Under the pieces are notes generated by a model that was not told the DNA's origin, did no database searches, and was given only the letters and a program-made list of their open reading frames with translations. From Dongshaea marina (lineage in GTDB: Bacteria; Pseudomonadota; Gammaproteobacteria; Enterobacterales; Aeromonadaceae), in contig NZ_CP028897.1 of assembly GCF_003072645.1 (NCBI RefSeq), positions 655,658 to 695,657 of the forward strand: a stretch of DNA of 40,000 nt. Direction: 5' to 3'. Of this stretch, positions 4,364 through 35,427 are shown piece by piece; the stretch's first letter is position 1, and each line of letters starts with the position of its first letter. The position numbers and the translations under genes were made by a program.

Positions 4364-4389
4364 GTTAGTGCAGCGAAGCGCTATTATCT

Positions 4390-4745
4390 ATACCACTTCT
4401 CTGTGTATTATGATTTGCAGCTGCGCTGCAAGTGCCGGTGCTGACCGGCGGCAGGCAAGGCCGTTCTCAGGCATCCTGCCCTTCACGGCATTGATATATC
4501 CCTATATGGCAAAGGTGCTCCGCGCTTCTGATACACAGGGAAGTGTGAATGTCGCGTTAAACATGGATGTTGTTAGCGGCATGCATCTCCCGGGGCGCCC
4601 CGAACCTCACTTCCTCCTGGGCTCATCTAAGAGTTAAGGCATCACTTAGACATCACATCCATGTGGTGACTAAGCTCTCGCGATATCCCTATCGCTCAGC
4701 CTCAATACTTAACGGTTCGCCTCGGCGTTCGCTCACGGGGAGTTA
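4390..4745 (-). ncRNA. candidate CsrB/RsmZ-like GGA-loop hairpin-array RNA (unit A-left); alternatively a hairpin-array repeat
   Basis: No credible ORF. Minus-strand hairpins GGC-AGGAU-GCC (4470-4480), AUAU-AGGG-AUAU (4494-4507), CAC-AUGGAU-GUG (4654-4665), GCGAU-AGGGAU-AUCGC (4680-4695). Hand count on the plus strand 4441-4750: 9 TCC versus 3 GGA. Shares modules with 34490-34610. Confidence 0.4.
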
Positions 4746-4747
4746 GT

Positions 4748-4850
4748 CCCCGTCTATTTGCGCCGAAAGTTTCAAATAGGAAGCAGAGGGTGAGCGGCAT
4801 GGACACCGCGAAAGGGCAACCAGTACATGGACGTACTGTTGGCCTGATCT
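4748..4850 (+). ncRNA. short GGA-loop hairpin unit (A-right), same family
   Basis: Starts with the module CCCCGTCTATTTGCGCCGAA (19/20 with the minus strand of 13492-13511). It is followed by AGGAAG, GCGG-CAUGGACA-CCGC (4794-4809) and CAGUAC-AUGGAC-GUACUG (4821-4838). 3 GGA versus 0 TCC. Confidence 0.25.
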
Positions 4851-4856
4851 GATATG

Positions 4857-5246
4857 CTATCCCTCTTCGGTGACCTTGACTTCGTAACTGTAGGTCTGTC
4901 CATTAGCCAAAATTAGCGGGTAGATAGCGGTTTGTCCAAGTTTGAGATTTAGCGTACCAAGATCGAGGTTGAGCATAGGGGAAGGTGCCATTGCACTTGA
5001 TGTGGGTAGAGCAAGCTGGCTAGCGAGCTTAATGTGTGATATGTCCAGAGGTTTAACCAATACATCCAGCTTCAATTTATTATCGAGTAACATTTTAGCA
5101 TTTATATTTTGCTTCACGATGATCGTGGGCTGAGCGTAAGCTGCACCGTTATACAGAATACGGGCTTTAACCTGGTAGTTGGGGTGGGCCATAACTGAGG
5201 TTGTGGCTGTGATTAAGCTCAGCCCTAAAACCAATAGGCTTTTCAT
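4857..5246 (-). CDS. hypothetical secreted protein
   Basis: ATG at 5246 with AGGA 6 nt upstream. Signal-peptide-like N-terminus MKSLLVLGLSLITATTSVMA. No recognisable family. Confidence 0.55.
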   Translation of the reverse strand: MKSLLVLGLSLITATTSVMAHPNYQVKARILYNGAAYAQPTIIVKQNINAKMLLDNKLKLDVLVKPLDISHIKLASQLALPTSSAMAPSPMLNLDLGTLNLKLGQTAIYPLILANGQTYSYEVKVTEEG

Positions 5247-5559
5247 GTGCAATCCTTATTAGTTTGCTGCGATTTATTATACGTTCAATAGATCGCAGTG
5301 TGTGGCCCCTTCTCGCTGAGCCGGCCTAATTGCTTTGAACGACTGAGTTTGAGCAGTGTAGCTTTGTTGAGTGTCCACTATTTCTGGTTCAGATCACAGC
5401 TCTATTACTACTTCACAGGGAAAATGATCGATTAAACTTCCTTTATTTTCCCTTTAGAGAAGCTCAGAAAGCTCTGAGCGAGGAACCTTAAGCGTGATAC
5501 TTCTGGGCTTTCTGGGGATCCGCTTAAGTAAGGCTTTTTTCTGGCTCTGTTGCAAAAAT

Positions 5560-9847: not shown

Positions 9848-9939
9848 GGAATGAGATAGGGTCTGGTGGCCCTCTCGGTCTTCAAAACCGATGTGAGCTG
9901 TATCGGCTTAGGCAGGTTCGATTCCTGCCTCTTCCGCCA
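9848..9939 (+). tRNA. selC: tRNA-Sec (anticodon UCA)
   Basis: 92 nt. Anticodon loop CUUCAAA (UCA 9882-9884). 6-bp D-stem AGGGUC/GGCCCU with a 4-nt loop. Long variable arm. T-arm GCAGG-UUCGAUU-CCUGC. Discriminator G plus CCA. The 3' end resembles E. coli selC. The acceptor stem has an unpaired U5. Confidence 0.9.
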
Positions 9940-11422: not shown

Positions 11423-13267
11423 ATGATCTATCAGAATAACTCAGAGTCGGCCTATCAGGCTGTTGTTGGTTTGGCCGGACATGTTGATCATGGTAAGACG
11501 GCGCTGATTGAGGCGCTGACCGGCATGATGACGGCTCGCCCTCATGAGCAGGCGCTGGGGATGACCCAGGATCTGGGGTTTGCCCATTTTGCGGATGATG
11601 CAGGTAATACCATAGGGGTGGTTGATGTACCGGGCCATGAGCGCTACCTGCGTAACATGGTAGCCGGAGTCTGGCATCTCAATGCGTTGATACTGGTGAT
11701 CGCCGCCGATGAGGGATGGATGCCTATGACCACCTCCCACCTGCAGGTGGCTCATGCGATGGGGATCAGCAATATCATCGTCTGTATCAACAAGAGTGAT
11801 AAGGTTTCCTCCGAAGAGCTGGCCGAGGTTGAGGAGCAGGCTCTGGAGCATGTGATGGATATGTCCGGTCTGGTGCCTGAGCTCGTGAGTGTCTCGGCAC
11901 TGAGCGGCGATAATATCCCTGAGCTTAGGGAGCTAATCATTGAGACCCTGACCCAAGATCTTTGTGTGCCTTGTGTAGATTCTGATCAGCCAAAGATAGA
12001 GGCTGAGCCTTTACTCTATGTGGATCGGGCATTTGTGGTTAATGGGATTGGGACCGTGGTTACAGGCACCCTGGCCCAGGGAATACTCTCTATTGGTGAT
12101 AAGGTGCGCTGTTACCCATCAGGCCTTTTGGGAACTGTGCGCTCACTGCAGGCCTATCACCGCCAGCTTGAAAGCGTCTCCGGAACCTGCCGGGTCGCAG
12201 TGAATATCAAGGGGCTGACCCGTAAAGAGGTTGAGCGGGGTCACCTGGTGACCGGGCGTGAGCAGAAGATAGCTCAGTGTGAACAGTGCCTGGTACGACT
12301 CAATCCCTCGGAGGATGAGCCATCGGCGAAACGACAGCGGGAGGTTGAGGTTGCGATTGGTACCTGGCATGGCTTTGCAAAGCTCTGCTATATCCCCAAC
12401 ACCAACCTGGCGCGGTTGATATTTAAAAAGCCGGTCTCGCTGCAGTTTGCCCAACGGCTGGCGATGATTCAAAAAGGCGGGAGCCGCCTGTTGCACGGTG
12501 CTCAGGTGGTATGGACCGACTTTATTCCCTCCTATCAGAAGCGCCGTATCTACACAGCTCTTAATGAATTGCCAGAGAGCCTGACGGCGGAAGCTCTGCC
12601 ACAGCTGCTGCTTAGCCTGCAAGGATATTTTGATGTCGAGCAGATCGCAGGAGATAGCGACTGTCAGGGCGTGACCCTTGGTCCTTATCTGTTTGAATCT
12701 GACTGGCTAGCCAGGGCTCAGGAAAATATTTTGCAGCGCCTTGATAAGGGGTTGTCGCTCAGTAGCGTCGAGCTCAGCGATCAGCTGGAGATCGAAGAGC
12801 CGGTGTTGAATGTCATCATGCAGGAGCTCAAGCAGCGGCAGATCGTACACCTCAGTTATGGCAAATGGCGTCATGGGGAGGGGGATAATGAGGATGAACT
12901 TCCCACAGAGGCGCTAACCCTGTTGCAGCAAACCCGCGATTGCGGCAAGGCGGGGCTTGAGCTTTCCAAGATAAAACTGGCTCCGGGCTCCAAGAAGTGG
13001 CTGCGCCAGCTATGCCACCAGAAATATATTACCGCACTGGATGAAAGCATCTATTACGACATGGGGATCTACCGGGAGATGATCCAGGCGGTGGTCGCCG
13101 ATCACCAGAGTCAGGATCGGATCTCGATGGGGGATATCAAGGATCGCACCGGGCTGAGCCGTAAGTATGCGATCCCCCTGGCCAACCGGATGGAAAAAGA
13201 TGGCTGGGTGCGGCGGGATGGGGATGAGCGAATCATCCTGAAATCCTGGGAAGAGGTTTCGTCTTAA
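11423..13267 (+). CDS. selB: selenocysteine-specific elongation factor
   Basis: ATG 11423 lies 5 nt after the selA stop. 614 aa. G-domain GHVDHGKTALIEALTG, DVPGHERY, NKSD, plus a long winged-helix C-terminal part. Confidence 0.92.
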   Translation: MIYQNNSESAYQAVVGLAGHVDHGKTALIEALTGMMTARPHEQALGMTQDLGFAHFADDAGNTIGVVDVPGHERYLRNMVAGVWHLNALILVIAADEGWMPMTTSHLQVAHAMGISNIIVCINKSDKVSSEELAEVEEQALEHVMDMSGLVPELVSVSALSGDNIPELRELIIETLTQDLCVPCVDSDQPKIEAEPLLYVDRAFVVNGIGTVVTGTLAQGILSIGDKVRCYPSGLLGTVRSLQAYHRQLESVSGTCRVAVNIKGLTRKEVERGHLVTGREQKIAQCEQCLVRLNPSEDEPSAKRQREVEVAIGTWHGFAKLCYIPNTNLARLIFKKPVSLQFAQRLAMIQKGGSRLLHGAQVVWTDFIPSYQKRRIYTALNELPESLTAEALPQLLLSLQGYFDVEQIAGDSDCQGVTLGPYLFESDWLARAQENILQRLDKGLSLSSVELSDQLEIEEPVLNVIMQELKQRQIVHLSYGKWRHGEGDNEDELPTEALTLLQQTRDCGKAGLELSKIKLAPGSKKWLRQLCHQKYITALDESIYYDMGIYREMIQAVVADHQSQDRISMGDIKDRTGLSRKYAIPLANRMEKDGWVRRDGDERIILKSWEEVSS

Positions 13268-13284
13268 CCTGCGGTTGGCTGGTT

Positions 13285-13830
13285 TGTGCCTGCGGCACAC
13301 TAATGCCGCTGCCGAGCGGCAGCGGGAAGAGGGTATTGCTTGTCCAATACCCTCTTCACTCCCAAGGACACCCCGGAATTTGCTTCATCCCCATGCTCCA
13401 TCAGATTCACTAACGGACAGACAGAACGTCCCTGTTCTGACTGTCCTTCAATCACATCCATGTGATTGATACGTTCATCAACAATGAAGCATTCGGCGCA
13501 AATAAACGGGGCCCAACATCCCAGTCAGTTAGCTCGGTGGTGATATCTAAATTTTTTCTCTGTTCTGGTTTCAGCGCTGAAACAAAAAACTCCAGGAGAA
13601 ACTGAAAGTACCTCGGATATCAAATCGAAGAGAGGAAGTTATATCCCTGATCTCGCTTACCCCTCGAAGAGCCTGAGGAAAAAAGTTCCGATCAGACAGT
13701 AATCCCTATATTGACTGCTCTCTCGAAACATCCTGTTTCTCGACTTTAAGCCTCCACGGCTCTCCTCGGAGCTTGCTCATGGGGAGCAAACTTAATATTC
13801 ACTTCGATTATTATTTTCAGTGAGGTGATT
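13285..13830 (-). ncRNA. candidate GGA-loop hairpin-array RNA or repeat (unit B)
   Basis: Minus-strand hairpins: 13-bp stem with loop AGGGAC (13415-13446), CAAUCAC-AUGGAU-GUGAUUG (13449-13468), GAAAC-AGGAU-GUUUC (13725-13739), loop CAAUAUAGGGAUU (13697-13717), and a perfect 13-bp stem with GGACAAG (13326-13357). Hand count on the plus strand: 16 TCC versus 11 GGA. Shared modules at 13492-13511 and 13619-13641. Confidence 0.35.
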
Positions 13831-14378
13831 GCTACAAAAACAATATCATCAATTCCTAGTAGGAATTAACAGTTATGATGCTCTTTAGATGGTAACTTTC
13901 GAAAATCAGTGATTATTTAATATTTATTCTGTGTATCTTTTCCTGTTTGAAAAAGACTGCGGCGACGCTTTGATTCAGTGTGGATCGGTCTGATAATGTA
14001 CTGATATGAAGAGCTATTGAAACCCTGCTTTTCCATTGCTTTCAAACAGTTTTCTTCACCTAGCTCAGCGACGACAGCCTCTAAAACTTTTATGGCATCT
14101 TTTCTCGCTGTTTGCTCAGTCCTCCATTTTCCTGTTTACACCTTCTGCTGGATTATTTCGTCTAACACTGAGGGTAAATGATTTTTACCACGGAATGACA
14201 TTGAGGGAGCTCCTTTGTTTCAAAAGGGCCATATTGCTCCTTTGAAAACTGGATTTCAATAAGACTAGCCATTGTTGGGGTATTTCGACATCTCTTGTAG
14301 CGAAGTCACTAATCCTATCTGCAGGATCGACAGGGATTCATTAAACTTACTTTTAGATCCCCTGGTGAGACCGTCCAT

Positions 14379-15398: not shown

Positions 15399-15432
15399 AA
15401 TAAAGCGGTTTTTGCAATTGACTAGGAATGCC

Positions 15433-16038
15433 ATGAAAAGCTTTGTAATTGCAGATCCTCAAAAGTGTATCGGTTGTACCACCTGCATGGCAGCGTGTTC
15501 AGACGTACACAAGAAGGAAGGTCTGCAAAGTCATCCCCGGCTTACGGTGGTAAGGCATAAGGATGCAACAGCACCCGTCATGTGTCGTCATTGTGAAGAT
15601 GCTCCCTGTGCCACGGTTTGCCCGGTTGCGGCCATTACCAAGCATGAGGATCGGATCTCTCTCAATGAAACTCAGTGCGTAGGTTGTACGCTCTGTTCAG
15701 TTGCCTGCCCATTCGGTGCGATCGCCTTTGATGGGAGTCGTCCGGTTGCCATGGCGAACAGCTACGACACCTATATTCCATCGACGCCTCGTTCCAGCAA
15801 CCCGTCAACCTCAAATCCTGTGGTCTTTGGCCAGGATATCCTGGCCTGGGAGCCAGGAGTGAAGAGTATCGCGGTCAAGTGTGACCTGTGTAACTTCCGG
15901 GAGCAGGGGCCCGCTTGTGTAGAGATGTGTCCTACCCAGGCGATTATGCTGGTGGATGAAGAGAAGGCCGCTCGCTCGCGCCAAAACAAGCGCGAAGACG
16001 CCGCGAGTGTCTCTCAGAATATAAGCATGGAGCAGTAG
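15433..16038 (+). CDS. hyfA: hydrogenase-4 component A, 4Fe-4S ferredoxin-type
   Basis: ATG 15433 with AGGAA at 15424-15428. MKSFVIADPQKCIGCTTCMAACSDVHK and four Cys clusters. The ORF-track TTG start 15394 lies inside the promoter. Confidence 0.9.
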   Translation: MKSFVIADPQKCIGCTTCMAACSDVHKKEGLQSHPRLTVVRHKDATAPVMCRHCEDAPCATVCPVAAITKHEDRISLNETQCVGCTLCSVACPFGAIAFDGSRPVAMANSYDTYIPSTPRSSNPSTSNPVVFGQDILAWEPGVKSIAVKCDLCNFREQGPACVEMCPTQAIMLVDEEKAARSRQNKREDAASVSQNISMEQ

Positions 16039-26903: not shown

Positions 26904-26965
26904 TGTTAATCTGTCGAAGTCGCAGTCATGGGCTTCGATGTATCGACATGAACAAGGGATACACC

Positions 26966-27514
26966 ATGAACCGGTTTGTTTTTGCAGATCCAAATTTGTG
27001 TATTGGGTGTCGAACCTGTGAAGTCACTTGTGTGATCTCACACCAGGAAGACAGCTCACTGGCTGGCTTAGATCCATCAGATTTTTCACCACGCTTGTCG
27101 CTGGTGCAAAATGCTCAGACGACAACACCTATCATGTGTCGCCAGTGTGATGATGCTCCCTGTGCTCAGGTTTGCCCTAATAACGCTATCATCCATGAGG
27201 ATAATCAGGTTAAAGTGATTCAGTCACGCTGTATTGGCTGTAAGACCTGTGTCATTGCCTGTCCTTATGGTGCGATGAATGTTGTGACTAAAATGGTTGA
27301 GGACGAGAAGGCGACAGGGCTGTTTAAGCGCCGTGTTCCTGTGTCTCAGGCATTGAAATGTGATTTGTGTAATCACCGTGCAGAGGGACCCGCTTGTATG
27401 CAGGTTTGTCCGACTAGCGCGATCAAGATCATTGAACCAGAAACCTTGAATGAAACCAGCAGACAGAAGCGAGAAGCGGCGGCACTGAGTGCTTCGCTGA
27501 TCCCATCTCTCTGA
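26966..27514 (+). CDS. hydN: electron-transfer 4Fe-4S protein HydN
   Basis: ATG 26966 with AAGGGA upstream. MNRFVFADPNLCIGCRTCEVTCV...CRQCDDAPCAQVCP...CIGCKTCVIACPYGAM...KCDLCNHRAEGPACMQVCP parallels E. coli HydN. The ORF-track start 26777 spans the terminator and promoter. Confidence 0.9.
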   Translation: MNRFVFADPNLCIGCRTCEVTCVISHQEDSSLAGLDPSDFSPRLSLVQNAQTTTPIMCRQCDDAPCAQVCPNNAIIHEDNQVKVIQSRCIGCKTCVIACPYGAMNVVTKMVEDEKATGLFKRRVPVSQALKCDLCNHRAEGPACMQVCPTSAIKIIEPETLNETSRQKREAAALSASLIPSL

Positions 27515-27539: not shown

Positions 27540-29684
27540 ATGAAAAAAATCACAACTGTTTGCCCCTATTGTGGAACGGGGTGCAAACTGAAGTTGGTTG
27601 TCGAGAATGACAAGGTGGTGGCTGCGGAGCCTGCGAATGGCCGCACCAATGAAAGCCAGCTTTGTCTTAAAGGCTATTATGGCTGGGACTTTCTCAACGA
27701 TACCAACTTACTGACTCCACGCCTAAAACAGCCGATGATTCGTCGCACCAAGGATTCCGCTCTTGAAGCTGTCTCCTGGGATGAAGCATTGGACTTCACC
27801 GCGAATAAACTGAAGGCGATCAAAGATAAGCATGGTCCGGACGCCATTATCACCACAGGCTCTGCCCGTGGACCCGGTAATGAAGCCAACTATGTGATGC
27901 AAAAACTCACGAGGGCGGTCTTCGGGACCAATAACGTCGATCACTGCGCTAGGGTGTGACACGCTCCCTCAGTCTCCGGTCTGGAGACAACAGTAGGTAA
28001 TGGTGCCATGAGTAACGCCATTCCCGAAATTCAAGATACGAAATGCTTACTCATATTCGGTTACAACGCGGCTGACTCTCACCCGGTTGTAGCAAGACAC
28101 ATTCTGAAAGCACGCGCTAAGGGTGCCAAAGTTATTGTTTGTGACCCACGTAAGATTGAAACTGCGCGGGTTGCGGATCAGTGGCTGGCCCTGAAAAACG
28201 GCTCTAACATGGCCGTGGTTAATGCGCTGGCGAATGTCCTGATCGAAGAGAACCTCTACGACAAGGCGTATGTACAACAAAATGTGGAAGGCTTTGAAGA
28301 GTTCCGCAAGGTTGTAGAAAAGTATACTCCTGAGTCGGTTGAGGAGATCACCGGACTGAAGGCCGATGAGATCCGTCAGGCTGCCCGTACCTATGCCGAG
28401 GCATCTGAAGCGATGATCCTGTGGGGCATGGGTGTGACCCAGTATGGTCAGGCGGTTGACGTGGTGCGTGGCTTGGCGGGTCTTGCCCTGCTGACCGGTA
28501 ACTTTGGCCGTCGTGGCGTGGGTTGTGGTCCGGTTCGTGGCCAGAACAACGTTCAGGGTACCTGTGACATGGGTATGCTGCCTAATGTCTATCCTGGCTA
28601 CCAGTCGGTTGAGGATGATGCGGTTCGCGAGAAGTTTGAAAAAGCCTGGGGCGTTAAACTTTCTGCGAAGCCGGGCTACAAGCTGACCGAGATCACTCAC
28701 AAGGTGGAAGAGGGTAAGTGTAAGGCCTTCTACATCTTTGGTGAGGATCCGGCTCAGACAGAAGCCGATCTGAACGAGCTGCGTGAAACCCTGCGTAAGA
28801 TGGAGCTGGTAATTGTTCAGGATATCTTCATGACTCAGACTGCTGAGTTTGCGGATGTAATCTTCCCGGCGACCAGCTGGGGTGAACATGAAGGCGTTTA
28901 CAGCTCTGCGGACCGTGGTTTCCAGCGCTTTAGCAAGGCGGTGACTCCACCACCGAATGTGAAGCCTGACTGGGAGATCTTCTGCCTGCTGGCTCAGAAA
29001 CTGGGTTACCAGATGTCCTACAACAACACCCAGGAGATCTGGGATGAGTTGCGGGGTCTGTGTCCTAAGTATGCAGGTGCGTCCTACGAGAAGATGGAAG
29101 GCTTGAAATCGGTTCAGTGGCCATGCCCAACCGACGATCATCCGGGAACCTCCTTCCTGTTTGAAGGAAACAAGTTCACCACTCCATCGGGTAAGGGACA
29201 GCTGATCGCCGCCGACTGGCGTCCACCGCATGAGCAGCCGGATGAGGAGTATCCTCTGGTGCTGTCTACCGTGCGTGAAGTGGGTCACTACTCCTGCCGC
29301 TCGATGACGGGTAACTGTGCCGCGCTACAGACTCTGGCCGATGAGCCGGGTTATGTGCAGATCCATCCTGATGATGGTAAGGCTCTGGGTGTTGAGGATC
29401 AGCAGTTGGTCTGGATCTCCTCGCGCCGCGGTAAGGTTATCACGCGTGCGAACTTTAATGACCGGGTGAACAAGGGTGTGGTTTACATGACCTATCAATG
29501 GTGGATCGGTGCTTGTAACGAGCTGACCATTGAGCATGTGGATCCTATCTCTAAGACCCCTGAGTATAAGTTCTGTGCGGTGAAAATCGAGCAGATTGAA
29601 GATCAGGCTTCGGCTGAAAATTACGTACAGACAGAGTACAGTGATATGAAACGTCGCCTGAAGAATCATGTAGCGAACGCATAA
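27540..29684 (+). CDS. fdhF: formate dehydrogenase H, selenocysteine-containing (UGA at codon 140 read as Sec)
   Basis: ORFs 27540-27959 and 28008-29684 are in the same frame, separated only by TGA 27957-27959. The context VDHCARV-U-HAPSVSGLETTVGNGAMSNAI equals the FdhH Sec140 site. N-terminal CPYCGTGC 4Fe-4S motif. 714 codons. Confidence 0.95.
27960..27992 (+). promoter_or_regulatory. bacterial SECIS element of fdhF
   Basis: 11 nt after UGA comes the hairpin GUCUCC-GGUCU-GGAGAC (27972-27988). Spacing and the GGUCU apical loop match the E. coli fdhF SECIS as recalled. Confidence 0.85.
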
Positions 29685-31920: not shown

Positions 31921-34005
31921 ATGGAACGCTTTGAAAGTGATTTGATGAGTTTTTCAAAAGCACTGCTATCGATTAATGATATCTCTGGTCTGATGACTTT
32001 TCTAAATGATGATAACCTCTCTTTTATTCAGGTAGATAGAGTTAACATTATTTTGAAAAGTGATCTCAACACTTTTCCAACCCTCTATCATTTGGATGAA
32101 AATAAACAACTACAGCGTTATGAATATAATGCCGATGGAATGCCTCTGCATAGTGTTGCGAATGATGATTACACCCATAAAATAGAGGGTGAGGCTCTCT
32201 ACCTGAGTTACCCTCAATTAATAAATCATCCTGCTTATATCGATGTGAACAGTTATTATAAGGTTCCATTGACGACCGCAAATCAACAACTCGGCGCCAT
32301 AGAATTCATCAATATTCAACAGAGTAGTGAGGGGATTCAGGAGAAAAAACTTAAGCTATTCAATAACATGATAGCAACCATGGTGGAGCATATCATTGAG
32401 CATGAGCTGGCTTCAAATGCAGCCCAGCAATTGAATAATGAGCGTAAGAATTTTCAGGTGTTGGTTGATGTTACTAATGCAGTGATCAGTAAAAGTACCA
32501 AGAAAGATCTGATTACATCTTTGTTGAAATTTATCTATCAGCACTTTGGGATGAGAGACCTGTCCATCATTCAGGTTCATGAAGGACATTATAATCAGCA
32601 CTCCTGTAGTTATAGCGGTGGTAATATCGATTATCACAGTCACTTTTTTACCAATGCTCAATCGATCAAGCAGGTGATTGAAAATAAAAAGCCGCTGTTT
32701 TTGGATGAAGACTCAATTCGTGGGTTAAGCTTTGAAACCAACGCTCCCTTCTTTCCTTCTGAGGTAAAGAGTGCCTGTGTTGTGCCTATGGTTTTTCGTA
32801 GTGGAACCGTCGGCTATATCTGTTATATGCAGCGCCAGGAGCGCACATTTTTGCCCGATGATGTGGTGCTGTTCGGCCAGATTGCTGCCAGGGTCGCGCT
32901 GGCGATGCATAGCCTCAAGGTGCATGAAGCCAGATCTAAAACCAGAGCGGGTGGTAAGTATATCAGTATTGAAGATAGCTATATGGAGCATGCTATTTTT
33001 GATGACATCATCAGCCAGAGTGAGGCGATGAACCAGGTTCTGGATCAGGTGACTATGGTCGCTGACTGTGACAGCACAGTGCTGATCCTCGGTGAGTCGG
33101 GTACGGGTAAGGAGCTGATTGCCCAGGCGATTCACAAGATGAGTCGGCGCAGTGGTACCCGGATGGTCAAGATGAACTGTGCAGCGGTTCCAGCGGGACT
33201 CTTTGAAAGTGAGCTGTTTGGCCATGAGCGCGGTGCTTTTACCGGAGCGATCAGTAAGCGGGTGGGGCGCTTTGAAGAGGCCCATAAGGGGACTTTGTTT
33301 CTCGATGAGATTGGCGATATGCCCCTTGAGCTGCAGCCTAAGCTGCTCAGGGCTTTGCAGGAAAATGAGATTGAGCGGGTGGGTAAGAATCAGCAGATCT
33401 CGGTTGATGTACGGATCGTGGTGGCAACCAATGCTGATTTGGACTCTATGGTTGAGTCCAAAGCTTTTCGCAGCGATCTCTATTACCGCTTAAATGTGTT
33501 CCCTATCCTGATCCCCCCCCTGCGGGAGCGCCCCGAGGATATCCCTCTGCTGGTGAAGCATTTTACCCGGGTGATCTCCAAAAAGATGGGGAAGAATATT
33601 ACCGATATCACGGTTGAGGCGATGGATGTGCTGAGCCGCTGTGCCTGGCCGGGGAATGTCCGTCAGCTGCGTAACTTCATCGAGCGTTCAGTGATCCTGA
33701 CCCGGGGTCAGGTGCTCAATGTTCCTGTCGCTGAACTTCAGGGCCAGGGGACGCGGCCAACCCGCCAGACGGCTGAGCCGATATTTGAGGTCGAGCCTGC
33801 TCCCAAGCCGGTGGCGACCGATAACGGCTTTGATCGTGACGCTATTATCGATGCGCTGCGCCGCAGTAACGGGATCATCTCGGGACCGCGGGGCGCCGCA
33901 ACCAAGCTCGGGCTCAAGCGTACCACTCTTTTATCCCGGATGCAGAAGATGGGGATCAAGAGCCAGGACTACCTTGAGGAGGCCGACGAAGAGAACTTCG
34001 CCTGA
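31921..34005 (+). CDS. fhlA: formate hydrogenlyase transcriptional activator (sigma-54-dependent, GAF-AAA+-HTH)
   Basis: 694 aa. [19 protein letters not shown] (compare E. coli CRERDNFRILVAITNAVLS), [35 protein letters not shown]-terminal [22 protein letters not shown]. Confidence 0.92.
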
Positions 34006-34011
34006 TTTTCC

Positions 34012-34044
34012 GCCGGAGGCTCACTAAGCCTCCGGCTTTCCTTT
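34012..34044 (+). terminator. rho-independent terminator of fhlA
   Basis: GCCGGAGGCT-CACTA-AGCCTCCGGC followed by TTTCCTTT. Confidence 0.85.
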
Positions 34045-34049
34045 ACCAG

Positions 34050-34440
34050 TAGCTGACTTTTCATTGTGCTTCGCACGGCTAAATTGCAGCTGCGCAGCAT
34101 GATTGTCGGGGTGCCGGCAGCACATTACTTTTGTACCGCCAAAAGTAATCAAAAGCTCCCTTCGCGCTGCGAGTCCCTCCGCAGCTCGATGATGACCATC
34201 CTTGGTCATCTATCCCAGTTCAGCTTCCTGCTTCTCGTTCCATTACCCTTGGGGTAATTTCACCCTATCTCACGTTACGTTGCTCTGGGAGCAACTTCCC
34301 CCCTCCGAAGAGCTGAGGGGTGTACTCGCAGCATCCATGCTGCTCCACTTCAAATCACTTTATGATTTTTCGGCACGAATCAAAGGGGGCTCTAAAACTA
34401 CCTCTTCGATTTAGTTTTGGTGACTTTTTCGAGCAAAGCA
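34050..34440 (-). ncRNA. candidate GGA-loop hairpin-array RNA (unit C-left)
   Basis: Hand count on the plus strand: 11 TCC versus 1 GGA. Minus-strand hairpins GAUGACCA-AGGA-UGGUCAUC (34191-34210), GCAGC-AUGGAU-GCUGC (34328-34343), GCUGCGGAGGGACUCGCAGC (34166-34185). Further GGA in AAUGGAAC, GCAGGAAGC, CUGGGAU, AAGGGAG. Confidence 0.4.
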
Positions 34441-34790
34441 GGAAGCTTCAAGCTGTAATACCGAATCAAATCGAAGAGAGGAAGTTAACCCCCGTGAGCG
34501 AGCGCCGAGGCGAGCCGTAGAAGATTCAGGTCGAATCACATGGATGTGATGAGAGCTTAGCCGCTACAGGGATGTTGCGTCTAAGCGGTGCCTTAATGCT
34601 CAGGTGAGCCGAGGGTTAAGCGAGATCCGGGGCGCGAGGGGATTGCAAAGGGGAAAGGCGTTTGCCCCTTTGCTCGCTGTCGGGCGATCCCGACAATTAC
34701 TGCAAATCTGCCATCCGCAGGATAAAGATCGACGTAGTTTGACCTGCGGTCAGCTGATTTGTGCCACAGGCACAAAACAGCTGGCTTTTA
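34441..34790 (+). ncRNA. candidate GGA-loop hairpin-array RNA (unit C-right) with terminator
   Basis: 7 GGA versus 3 TCC. Hairpins AUCAC-AUGGAU-GUGAU (34535-34550) and GCUUAGCCGC-UACAGGGAUGUU-GCGUCUAAGC (34555-34586; the loop matches the CsrA SELEX motif ACARGGAUGU), plus GCAAAGGGG...CCCCUUUGC (34645-34673). Ends in a 15-bp stem with a U-rich tail. Confidence 0.45.
34751..34790 (+). terminator. terminator-like hairpin closing unit C-right
   Basis: CAGCTGATTTGTGCC-ACA-GGCACAAAACAGCTG (one mismatch) followed by GCTTTTAGTCGCAATTTTT. Confidence 0.55.
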
Positions 34791-34878
34791 GTCGCAATTT
34801 TTGAGCAATGCTGTTGACTCCCGGGCTATTTTTCGCTGGAAATAGATCATCTGAAAGATAGACTGGAGTCATACGGGC

Positions 34879-35046
34879 ATGGGGAAAATTGTATCGATTG
34901 AATTGAGTGAGATTCACCAGGCATTAATTCAGCGAGCGGCAGAGTTAGCGGGAATGGAGCTTGAAGAGTATGTCCATTATGTCAGTGTTGAGGCTTCCAA
35001 AAAAGTGTTGGGACTGTGTGGTGGTGAACCCGAAGAGCTCGGTTGA
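34879..35046 (+). CDS. short DUF1778/TacA-like (ribbon-helix-helix) antitoxin-like ORF, apparently truncated and orphan
   Basis: 55-aa ORF, below the track cutoff: MGKIVSIELSEIHQALIQRAAELAGMELEEYVHYVSVEASKKVLGLCGGEPEELG. It resembles the N-terminal half of TacA-type antitoxins. No intact GNAT toxin ORF follows. Confidence 0.4.
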   Translation: MGKIVSIELSEIHQALIQRAAELAGMELEEYVHYVSVEASKKVLGLCGGEPEELG

Positions 35047-35427
35047 GGCAATTTGAGAGCGATAACAAGACAAAGGTGCTTTTTAAAAAGTGCGAGCTGG
35101 CAGGGATCCTTTCCCGTTCCTTGTTCTGTGAGACCTGACTAAACAACCAGCTGCCGACCCATACTAAGCGAGAGATGGGCTCACACAAAATGATTTTCCG
35201 CCTGTGCTTCATTTGTAGGGGGATCCCCTTGGCCACTCTTGAGATCACCATTAGGTTGGCAGGGAGCAGCTTCGCTCCTGCCTGAAATGGCTGCTTTTCA
35301 CCCTCTGGGTGTATTCACTGGCATTTACTTCTCTGGGGGATAACACTCATGATGAATAATGCTATGCGGCCTGTCACATACAAACCGGTACTTTTTATTT
35401 CACCATTTATTTGTGTATGTATTGAAA

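Follow-up and report, generated by a model that had tools for sequence, protein, structure and literature searches.

Five diverged copies of a two-hairpin GGA element in a formate-metabolism island of Dongshaea marina, a very probable branch of the TwoAYGGAY family with a proposed CsrA-decoy role

We analyzed a 40,000-nucleotide stretch of Dongshaea marina DNA (RefSeq assembly GCF_003072645.1, contig NZ_CP028897.1, positions 655,658 to 695,657; hereafter the window), whose annotated open reading frames (ORFs) make up a formate and hydrogen metabolism island. The island comprises deoB, deoD, and focA; fdhD, the tRNA-Sec gene, selA, and selB; a hyf-type hydrogenase-4 operon and a selenocysteine fdhF; and a lactate/formate-type transporter gene and fhlA. 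Three of its intergenic tracts, T1, T2, and T3, all bordered by formate-hydrogenlyase-related genes, hold between them five units of what appears to be a single structured element, which would display GGA in the loops of two adjacent hairpins (Table 1). With Rfam at its gathering threshold, only two tRNAs were found in the whole window. The csrA gene, whose product these loops are proposed to bind, lies outside it.

Direct comparison of the tracts revealed the units. A repeat search paired A_T1 and A_T3 as an ungapped inverted pair of 168 nt (4588-4755 / 34475-34642, 71% identity), and blastn aligned the same two at 74% over 151 nt (E 1.6e-21). A_T2 is a third collinear copy, matching A_T3 at 70% over 142 nt (13645-13784(-), E 2e-11, blastn), while the B units align as a second collinear pair (4725-4870(+) with 13385-13535(-)). 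From the three A units of Dongshaea only, we built a covariance model of 165 positions, R1, which recovered all five units in the window; every other score was 14 bits or less. Because R1 was made from A units and finds both B units, the latter are, on this sequence evidence, diverged members of the A-unit family. Pairwise identity among the five ranges from 47% to 73%. In T1, A_T1(-) and B_T1(+) are arranged head-to-head over the palindrome at 4737-4751.

The units share an architecture in which an outer helix (P1), CCCCGU...CGGGG with internal loops, leads through a short closing stem to two adjacent hairpins whose loops carry A(U/G)GGA(U/C). The distance from GGA to GGA is 28 nt in every unit, and in all five the GGA loops and the CCCCGU arm lie on the same strand. 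GGA is present in 10 of 10 loops: five are strictly AYGGAY, four are AGGGAY, and one is CAGGAU. The outer helix is long in four units, which have ~28 pairs beyond the two hairpins. What closes B_T1 seems to be just a short stem, AGAGGG/CCCUCU, which would reach the stop codon of the minus-strand ORF at 4857-5252. The closing stem is AAAGU/ACUUU in A_T2 and GAGGC/GCCUU in the other A units. When the four full-length units were folded separately, their minimum free energy (MFE) structures were the same rod with two GGA hairpins (z -1.1 to -4.9, B_T2 having z = -4.9), and the fold of A_T1 reproduced the outer helix together with both hairpins. Hairpin 1 of B_T1 was not reproduced in the MFE fold of that unit.

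With the three A units aligned by MAFFT alone, RNAalifold yielded 47 pairs, 14 of them compensatory. In the alignment of all five units, which was fitted to the model and hence favors the structure, 91.6% of pair cells were paired and 25 of the 47 pairs had changed on both sides. None of 500 shuffles reached these values, and slid controls were 30-38% paired, with 2-5 double-changed pairs. Identity by column was 86% in the loops and 55% in the hairpin stems. Between A_T1 and A_T3, hairpin 2 is identical at 12 of 19 positions and differs by compensatory point changes; hairpin 1 has changed more thoroughly, and A_T1 has its AUGGAU and AGGGAU loops in the opposite order to A_T3. As read from these alignments, the stems drift in sequence but keep their pairing, the loops keep their identity, and the units are five collinear paralogous copies (~140-165 nt) of one structured element that have diverged by compensatory change. 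Since copies this dissimilar in sequence nevertheless retain so much pairing by way of double changes, we infer long-term selection on structure at each locus rather than neutral decay after a burst of copying.

An earlier sequence-only reading of this DNA, made from six hand-aligned matches, had described the tracts as paralogous and mosaic, with shuffled modules and with stems replaced under preserved loops. All six matches exist (27/29, 10/10, 23/23, 19/20, and 12/12 for matches 1, 3, 4, 5, and 6), with match 2 corrected from 25/32 to 26/32, and the paralogy stands, as blastn and R1 both find collinear units. The modules fared differently. In the repeat search and in blastn, matches 1 to 3 keep the same order and register inside one A-unit homology, where match 1 is the 5′ arm, match 3 is the linker before hairpin 2, and match 2 is the 3′ side of hairpin 2 plus the start of the 3′ arm. 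By blastn, match 5 lengthens to 44 nt (82% identity); it is the 5′ arm of the B pair. The two differing hairpins with a GGAUG do exist; they are hairpin 2 of A_T1 and its homolog in A_T3, in which point changes, not a swap, separate the stems. Match 6 is weak, since 6 of 100 shuffles gave at least two matches at one mismatch or fewer, and the left parts of T1 and T3 around it have no collinear homology. This leaves match 4, a 23-mer, as the one non-collinear feature among the six.

Tracts assembled from independent short modules, with hairpins exchanged between conserved ones, would account for the differing relative orientations of the 23-mer and its 11-mer core, for a purine motif with five of its six window copies in the tracts, for single-hairpin or arm-like fragments in the left part of T3, and for the switched loop order in A_T1. 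However, the pieces shared in matches 1-3 and 5 lie in collinear order within homologous full-length units of ~165 nt, hairpin 2 has changed by compensation rather than replacement, and the surroundings of match 6 cannot be aligned; only unit orientation and the 23-mer are rearranged. The collinear alignments thus appear largely to refute a mosaic origin, which we regard as very improbable. The view in the same reading that loop identity and pairing are maintained over primary sequence agrees with the double changes and with the loop and stem identities given above.

Table 1. Positions of the tracts, units, and associated sequence features in the window
Feature	Position	Strand	Score or basis	Description
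Tract T1	4364-4856			gap between focA and a convergent 131-aa ORF
Tract T2	13268-14378			gap between selB and an ATP-binding cassette (ABC) binding-protein gene, both on +
Tract T3	34006-35358			gap 3′ of fhlA, before the next gene
A_T3	34478-34642	+	R1 182.6 bits, positions 1-165	hairpins AAUCACAUGGAUGUGAU, CCGCUACAGGGAUGUUGCG
A_T1	4588-4752	-	R1 177.5 bits, positions 1-165	5′ arm CCCCGUGAGCGAACGCCGAGGCGAACCGU; hairpin 1 GCGAUAGGGAUAUCGC; hairpin 2 CACCACAUGGAUGUGAUG; 3′ arm end GGUUCGGGG
A_T2	13634-13796	-	R1 152.5 bits, positions 1-165	hairpins GAAACAGGAUGUUUC, CAGUCAAUAUAGGGAUUACUG
B_T2	13361-13523	-	R1 65.4 bits, E 6e-17, positions 1-165	full-length, diverged; 5′ arm CCCCGUUUAUUUGCGCCGAAUGCUUCAU paired with AUGAAGC...CCGGGG; hairpins AAUCACAUGGAUGUGAUU, GUCAGAACAGGGACGUUCUGUC
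B_T1	4748-4870	+	R1 27.2 bits, E 3e-6, core only (4790-4849)	short-P1 member; leader CCCCGUCUAUUUGCGCCGAA; hairpins GCGGCAUGGACACCGC, CCAGUACAUGGACGUACUGG
Palindrome GGGGAGTTAGTCCCC	4737-4751		sequence; hairpin in fold	common to the 5′ ends of A_T1(-) and B_T1(+)
23-mer ATCAAATCGAAGAGAGGAAGTTA	13619-13641	+		reverse complement is the pyrimidine/U-rich tail directly 3′ of A_T2(-)
23-mer copy	34465-34487	+	23/23 with 13619-13641	directly 5′ of A_T3(+)
GAAGAG(A)GG sites	4861-4868(-), 13326-13333(+), 13350-13357(-), 13627-13635(+), 34473-34481(+), 28707(+)			
Two GGA hairpins	4494-4507, 4460-4489	-	fold of 4400-4780(-)	AUAUAGGGAUAUAU and GCCGUGAAGGGCAGGAUGCCUGAGAACGGC, respectively; downstream of A_T1
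GGA hairpin cluster	34160-34345	-	fold z = -4.2	GCAGCAUGGAUGCUGC, GAUGACCAAGGAUGGUCAUC, GCUGCGGAGGGACUCGCAGC, others; left of A_T3
Terminator-like hairpin	34752-34792	+	sequence	CAGCUGAUUUGUGCCACAGGCACAAAACAGCUG, then GCUUUU

The 23-mer lies within 2-3 nt of a unit in both T2 and T3, and the entire unit with its arms has an inverted orientation to the 23-mer. Zero such matches are expected in shuffles, even at 3 mismatches. It is 100% conserved beside units that are 71% alike, and its orientation is unexplained; the flanks upstream of it do not align between the tracts. The 11-mer core of the 23-mer, AAATCGAAGAG, recurs inverted in T3 at 34402-34412(-), 55 nt upstream. If both GGA strands were transcribed through the 23-mer, the RNAs from T2(-) and T3(+) would share 23 nt of mutual complementarity. 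Of six sites in the window with the purine motif GAAGAG(A)GG, five lie inside the three tracts; a perfect 13-bp palindrome (13326-13357) immediately 3′ of B_T2 has two of these sites as its arms.

The architecture of the units resembles that of TwoAYGGAY RNAs (RF01731), which were described as having a pair of AYGGAY loops and, closing them, a P1 "often very large (e.g., 24 base pairs)" and sometimes short (Weinberg et al. 2010, PMC2864571). The alignment in that study includes at least five copies in Psychromonas ingrahamii, with repeated flanks. In family identity and fold, the Dongshaea units are very probably a divergent branch of TwoAYGGAY (clan CL00106). The Rfam model, for which the cut-off is 43 bits, matches the core of B_T2 (13411-13471) at 38.9 bits (E 2.4e-4) and that of A_T3 (34532-34588) at 31.4 bits. 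We also scanned metagenomes with a hairpin-2 pattern common to B_T2 and P. ingrahamii, and this gave 17 contigs, 12 of them from sample Ga0075011. Rfam identified 17 TwoAYGGAY RNAs on these contigs at 52-76 bits. R1, built without them, matches 13 of these elements at E <= 1e-4, 12 over all 165 positions, with the full-length matches scoring 24-36 bits (E 6e-5 to 3e-8). As the maximum for R1 on E. coli csrB was 2.9 bits, the metagenomic matches are not a generic effect of GGA hairpins. A joint alignment of the Dongshaea and metagenomic elements, likewise fitted to the model, showed covariation at 40 of 47 pairs, with 91.2% of cells paired. When the cores were aligned with those from P. ingrahamii by MAFFT, hairpin 1 came out misaligned, and this alignment was set aside.

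Other shared properties concern copy number and sequence. Both the units and known TwoAYGGAY RNAs have two adjacent A(Y/R)GGAY hairpins under a P1 that is often very long, and both occur as multiple copies in a genome, often with two in one intergenic tract, as in the gammaproteobacterium P. ingrahamii and on the metagenome contigs. The ends of P1 (CCCCGU...CGGGG) and the hairpin-2 core CAG.CAG.ACAGGGACGU..UGUCUG are common to both, covariance models match in both directions, and AGGGAY loops like those of Dongshaea occur in bona fide metagenomic members as well, at hairpin 2. The B-unit leader, CCCCGUCUAUUUGCGCCGAA, resembles metagenomic CCCCGUCCAUUUUUAUUGAA. In contrast, the P1 arms of Dongshaea are GC-rich, whereas Psychromonas-like arms are A/U-rich and unrelated in sequence, the likeness being limited to the ends and, in B units, the first ~20 nt. 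The GGA spacing is 28 nt in Dongshaea rather than 30 nt, a U-rich tail follows P1 at A_T2 only, and the copies are 47-73% identical while metagenomic copies are near-identical.

Many of the Ga0075011 contigs (L081, L083, L087, L088, L094, L095, and L096) start or stop inside an element or tens of bases from it, and four contigs (L080, L083, L090, and L096) carry two TwoAYGGAY copies each, 370-1200 nt apart. These observations indicate that TwoAYGGAY is a high-copy, assembly-breaking repeat in the Ga0075011 organism. Group II intron segments lie within ~1.5 kb of metagenomic elements on L095 (1632-1795(-)), L096 (875-944(-)), and L089 (2073-2178(-)). On L096 the segment falls between two inverted TwoAYGGAY copies, and on L089 a t44 RNA is also near the element.

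A covariance model built from the units, as the sequence-only reading had suggested, thus finds the five units and their metagenomic relatives, but R1 matched nothing in 74 selB loci (1.5 Mb; Photobacterium, Aeromonas, Vibrio, Endozoicomonadaceae, and others), where blastn also gave no match. Scanning 185,579 species genomes and JGI metagenomes for the conserved 5′ arm as an exact pattern gave no match. The nearest FocA homolog outside Dongshaea marina is only 75% identical, so that there are no orthologous tracts for comparison; the focA contigs of the nearest relatives show no synteny with the window, and R1 had no match at E <= 1 on two such focA loci (L075 and L079). Neither a plasmid collection searched for the elements nor 5,426 E. 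coli genomes searched by blastn with the T1 tract produced a match.

The GGA loops are candidate sites for CsrA. Scored against the consensus RUACARGGAUGU, obtained for CsrA by systematic evolution of ligands by exponential enrichment (SELEX; PMC4347634), 8 of the 10 loops reach at least 9/12, whereas of the 1210 GGA sites in the window 40 do. TwoAYGGAY has been proposed as a CsrA-binding small RNA (sRNA) on the same grounds (PMC4333381), and CsrB and TwoAYGGAY belong to one Rfam clan, CL00106. We put the chance that the units bind CsrA at about even. Two sites 28 nt apart on adjacent hairpins are arranged as one would expect if a single CsrA dimer bound both. We lean toward a reading in which the units are divergent TwoAYGGAY elements, transcribed on the GGA strand, that serve as CsrA-titrating decoys. 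Transcription of the GGA strand would yield small RNAs or form part of longer intergenic transcripts, each unit would bind one CsrA dimer through its two loops, and the set of units would act as a multi-copy decoy that draws CsrA from mRNAs in the manner of CsrB or RsmZ.

CsrB and CsrC, together with RsmX, RsmY, and RsmZ, likewise have GGA in hairpin loops that fit the CsrA consensus, and they too occur as several paralogous copies per genome, for example in the csrB duplications of vibrios (PMC6262261). However, the Dongshaea units have no sequence or model similarity to CsrB: neither the CsrB model (RF00018) nor the other Rfam Csr/Rsm models matched any tract at E <= 10, in a search where E. 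coli csrB, the positive control, scored 380 bits. The units carry two high-quality sites each, at the tip of a long closed helix, whereas E. coli CsrB has ~18-22 sites. A further difference is that no GacA/UvrY box was found at the units.

Several results weigh against the decoy reading. All five units fall under the Rfam gathering cut-off, and the Rfam TwoAYGGAY model has no match to three of the five, the T1 units giving none at E <= 10. The covariation counts for the five units and for the joint set come from model-fitted alignments. Wobble cells are balanced (G-U 9, A-C 7) and favor neither strand and neither RNA nor DNA, and the opposite strands fold about equally well by MFE. Pairing alone therefore shows neither RNA function nor strand, and we infer the GGA strand from the GGA loops only. 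In the literature that we searched, experimental CsrA binding was found for no TwoAYGGAY RNA. The GGA density of the tracts is only ~2x background, far under that of CsrB. In scans of the tracts, no convincing sigma-70 promoter above background and no convincing intrinsic terminator was tied to a unit, and GacA/UvrY-box matches were at chance level (13 found, 11.7 expected), none tied to a unit. In addition, five copies per 40 kb in both orientations would be less usual for regulatory sRNA genes than for a dispersed repeat.

Such a repeat could be selfish, like a miniature inverted-repeat transposable element (MITE) or a REPIN, a form of repetitive extragenic palindrome (REP): the long palindrome would be mobile, copied by a transposase or by recombination, with the GGA loops incidental or a transposase site. 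The copies occupy 3 of ~12 intergenic gaps and include a head-to-head pair on a common palindrome, the perfect 23-mer adjoins units that are inverted as a whole relative to it, and the wobble pairs show no strand asymmetry. Bona fide relatives are also multicopy, with 12 contigs in Ga0075011, many ending inside the element and four with two copies, beside unrelated housekeeping genes; P. ingrahamii has at least five copies with repeated flanks. In being intergenic, long imperfect palindromes in both orientations, clustered, and multicopy in related organisms, the elements resemble REP and bacterial interspersed mosaic elements (BIME), REPIN, enterobacterial repetitive intergenic consensus sequences and intergenic repeat units (ERIC/IRU), and MITE. 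The 5,426 E. coli genomes, in which the T1 tract has no blastn match, carry ERIC and REP elements. Unlike these palindromic repeats, the Dongshaea copies are highly diverged (47-73% identical), with stems compensated (91.6% of pair cells kept, in the model-fitted alignment, through 25 double changes) and with a tip that branches into two hairpins. Loop conservation exceeds stem conservation and is strand-specific, the GGA strand being constant relative to the CCCCGU arm. No target-site duplications were visible in the flanks of the four full-length units, as inspected in alignments, and no transposase-like gene was seen among the 20 annotated ORFs of the window, in which no systematic transposase screen was made. 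A functional RNA is compatible with duplication-based spread. The preference of the sequence-only reading for protein-titrating RNAs over a MITE is reasonable, given loops that fit the CsrA consensus and the clan shared with CsrB. We consider the selfish-repeat explanation, with MITE- or REP-like spread, unlikely, though it keeps some weight. One could also imagine a self-propagating family of CsrA decoys, its copies selected for fold and loops, with Dongshaea subfamilies linked by the 23-mer and decoy RNAs that could pair with one another; this combination is speculative, and we give it little weight.

The position of the units invites another explanation, namely that they are parts of neighboring mRNAs, either stabilizers or terminators in 3′ untranslated regions (UTRs) or CsrA-responsive UTR elements that tie focA, selAB, hyf, and fhlA to CsrA. 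Formate-hydrogenlyase-related genes are next to all three tracts, each T1 unit runs in the direction of one of the two convergent genes, and a long GC-ended helix is followed by a pyrimidine-rich tail 3′ of A_T2 and of metagenomic copies (CGGGGCAGCCUUUCUUUU). However, formate genes nearby are expected by chance because the whole window is a formate-metabolism island, and relatives elsewhere adjoin unrelated genes (icd, parC, rraB, and a pseudouridine synthase gene). Each T1 unit is distal to its co-oriented gene, behind the antisense of the other unit, and fhlA has its own strong terminator (34012-34036), ~440 nt ahead of A_T3. Since both T2 units, A_T2 and B_T2, are antisense to selB and to the downstream ABC binding-protein gene, they are not parts of those mRNAs, which favors transcription of their own, if they are expressed at all. 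A cis-regulatory role for the formate genes is unlikely, and membership of the units in neighboring mRNAs seems to us a poor prospect generally.

For A_T3, the terminator-like hairpin at 34752-34792(+), ~110 nt past the unit, is a possible 3′ end of a putative ~330-nt plus-strand transcript. A terminator-like site is also present at 34739-34753, and TAATAC lies at 34454-34459, 28 nt upstream of the CCCCGU of A_T3. A hairpin module, ACCTGCGGT..GCTG.TTTGTGCC...GGCACA, is common to 34739-34785 and 13264-13299 at ~80% (81% by blastn for 34739-34774). Both copies are terminator-like, and the one at 13264-13299 overlaps the selB stop codon. On metagenomic contig L090, a conserved leader, AAACCAAUKCGGCUAC, stands upstream of the TwoAYGGAY copies (4400-4460(-) and 4775-4840(-)). 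The leaders are preceded by a -10-like TAATAC or TAAAAC, with TTGAAG 17 nt further upstream in one copy.

Two groups of GGA hairpins fall outside the five units. The pair downstream of A_T1 (4460-4507(-)) has no R1 or Rfam match and is not recognized as a unit. In the cluster left of A_T3, R1 matches single hairpins only, at 13 and 6.8 bits, and no unit is recognizable. The 300-nt bin at 34005-34304(-) has 12 GGA, the maximum for the minus strand of the window (mean 4.3, sd 2.1).

We made several further observations on the island. The fdhF gene (27540-29684(+)) is split into two ORFs at an in-frame TGA (27957-27959); its context, HCARV*HAPSVSGL, is that of the formate dehydrogenase H selenocysteine site, and tRNA-Sec (9848-9935), selA, and selB share the window with the gene. 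Two 4Fe-4S ferredoxin-type genes of the HydN/HyfA kind, at 15431-15623 and 26964-27177, are 73-84% identical in DNA over ~55-nt stretches and are paralogous electron-transfer subunits, one at each end of the hyf operon. In the right half of T2, which is otherwise non-coding, a 42-aa ORF from TTG (MKAMEKQGFNSSSYQYIIRPIHTESKRRRSLFQTGKDTQNKY, 13917-14045(-)), open to upstream extension, may be a gene remnant.

TwoAYGGAY has been a catalogued motif whose role as a CsrA sponge is still a prediction since 2015, and its known examples come mostly from gut metagenomes. Dongshaea marina, a cultivable facultative anaerobe, has at least five diverged TwoAYGGAY-type copies within 40 kb, which would be unannotated, new members of a known family. 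Their compensated stems and frozen loops are evidence for selection on a fold that presents the loops. Because the Rfam model misses this GC-rich branch, TwoAYGGAY is probably wider in the Aeromonadales and related orders than annotated. Dongshaea would thus offer a tractable system in which to study CsrA binding, the transcription of individual copies, and the repeat-like spread of the family.

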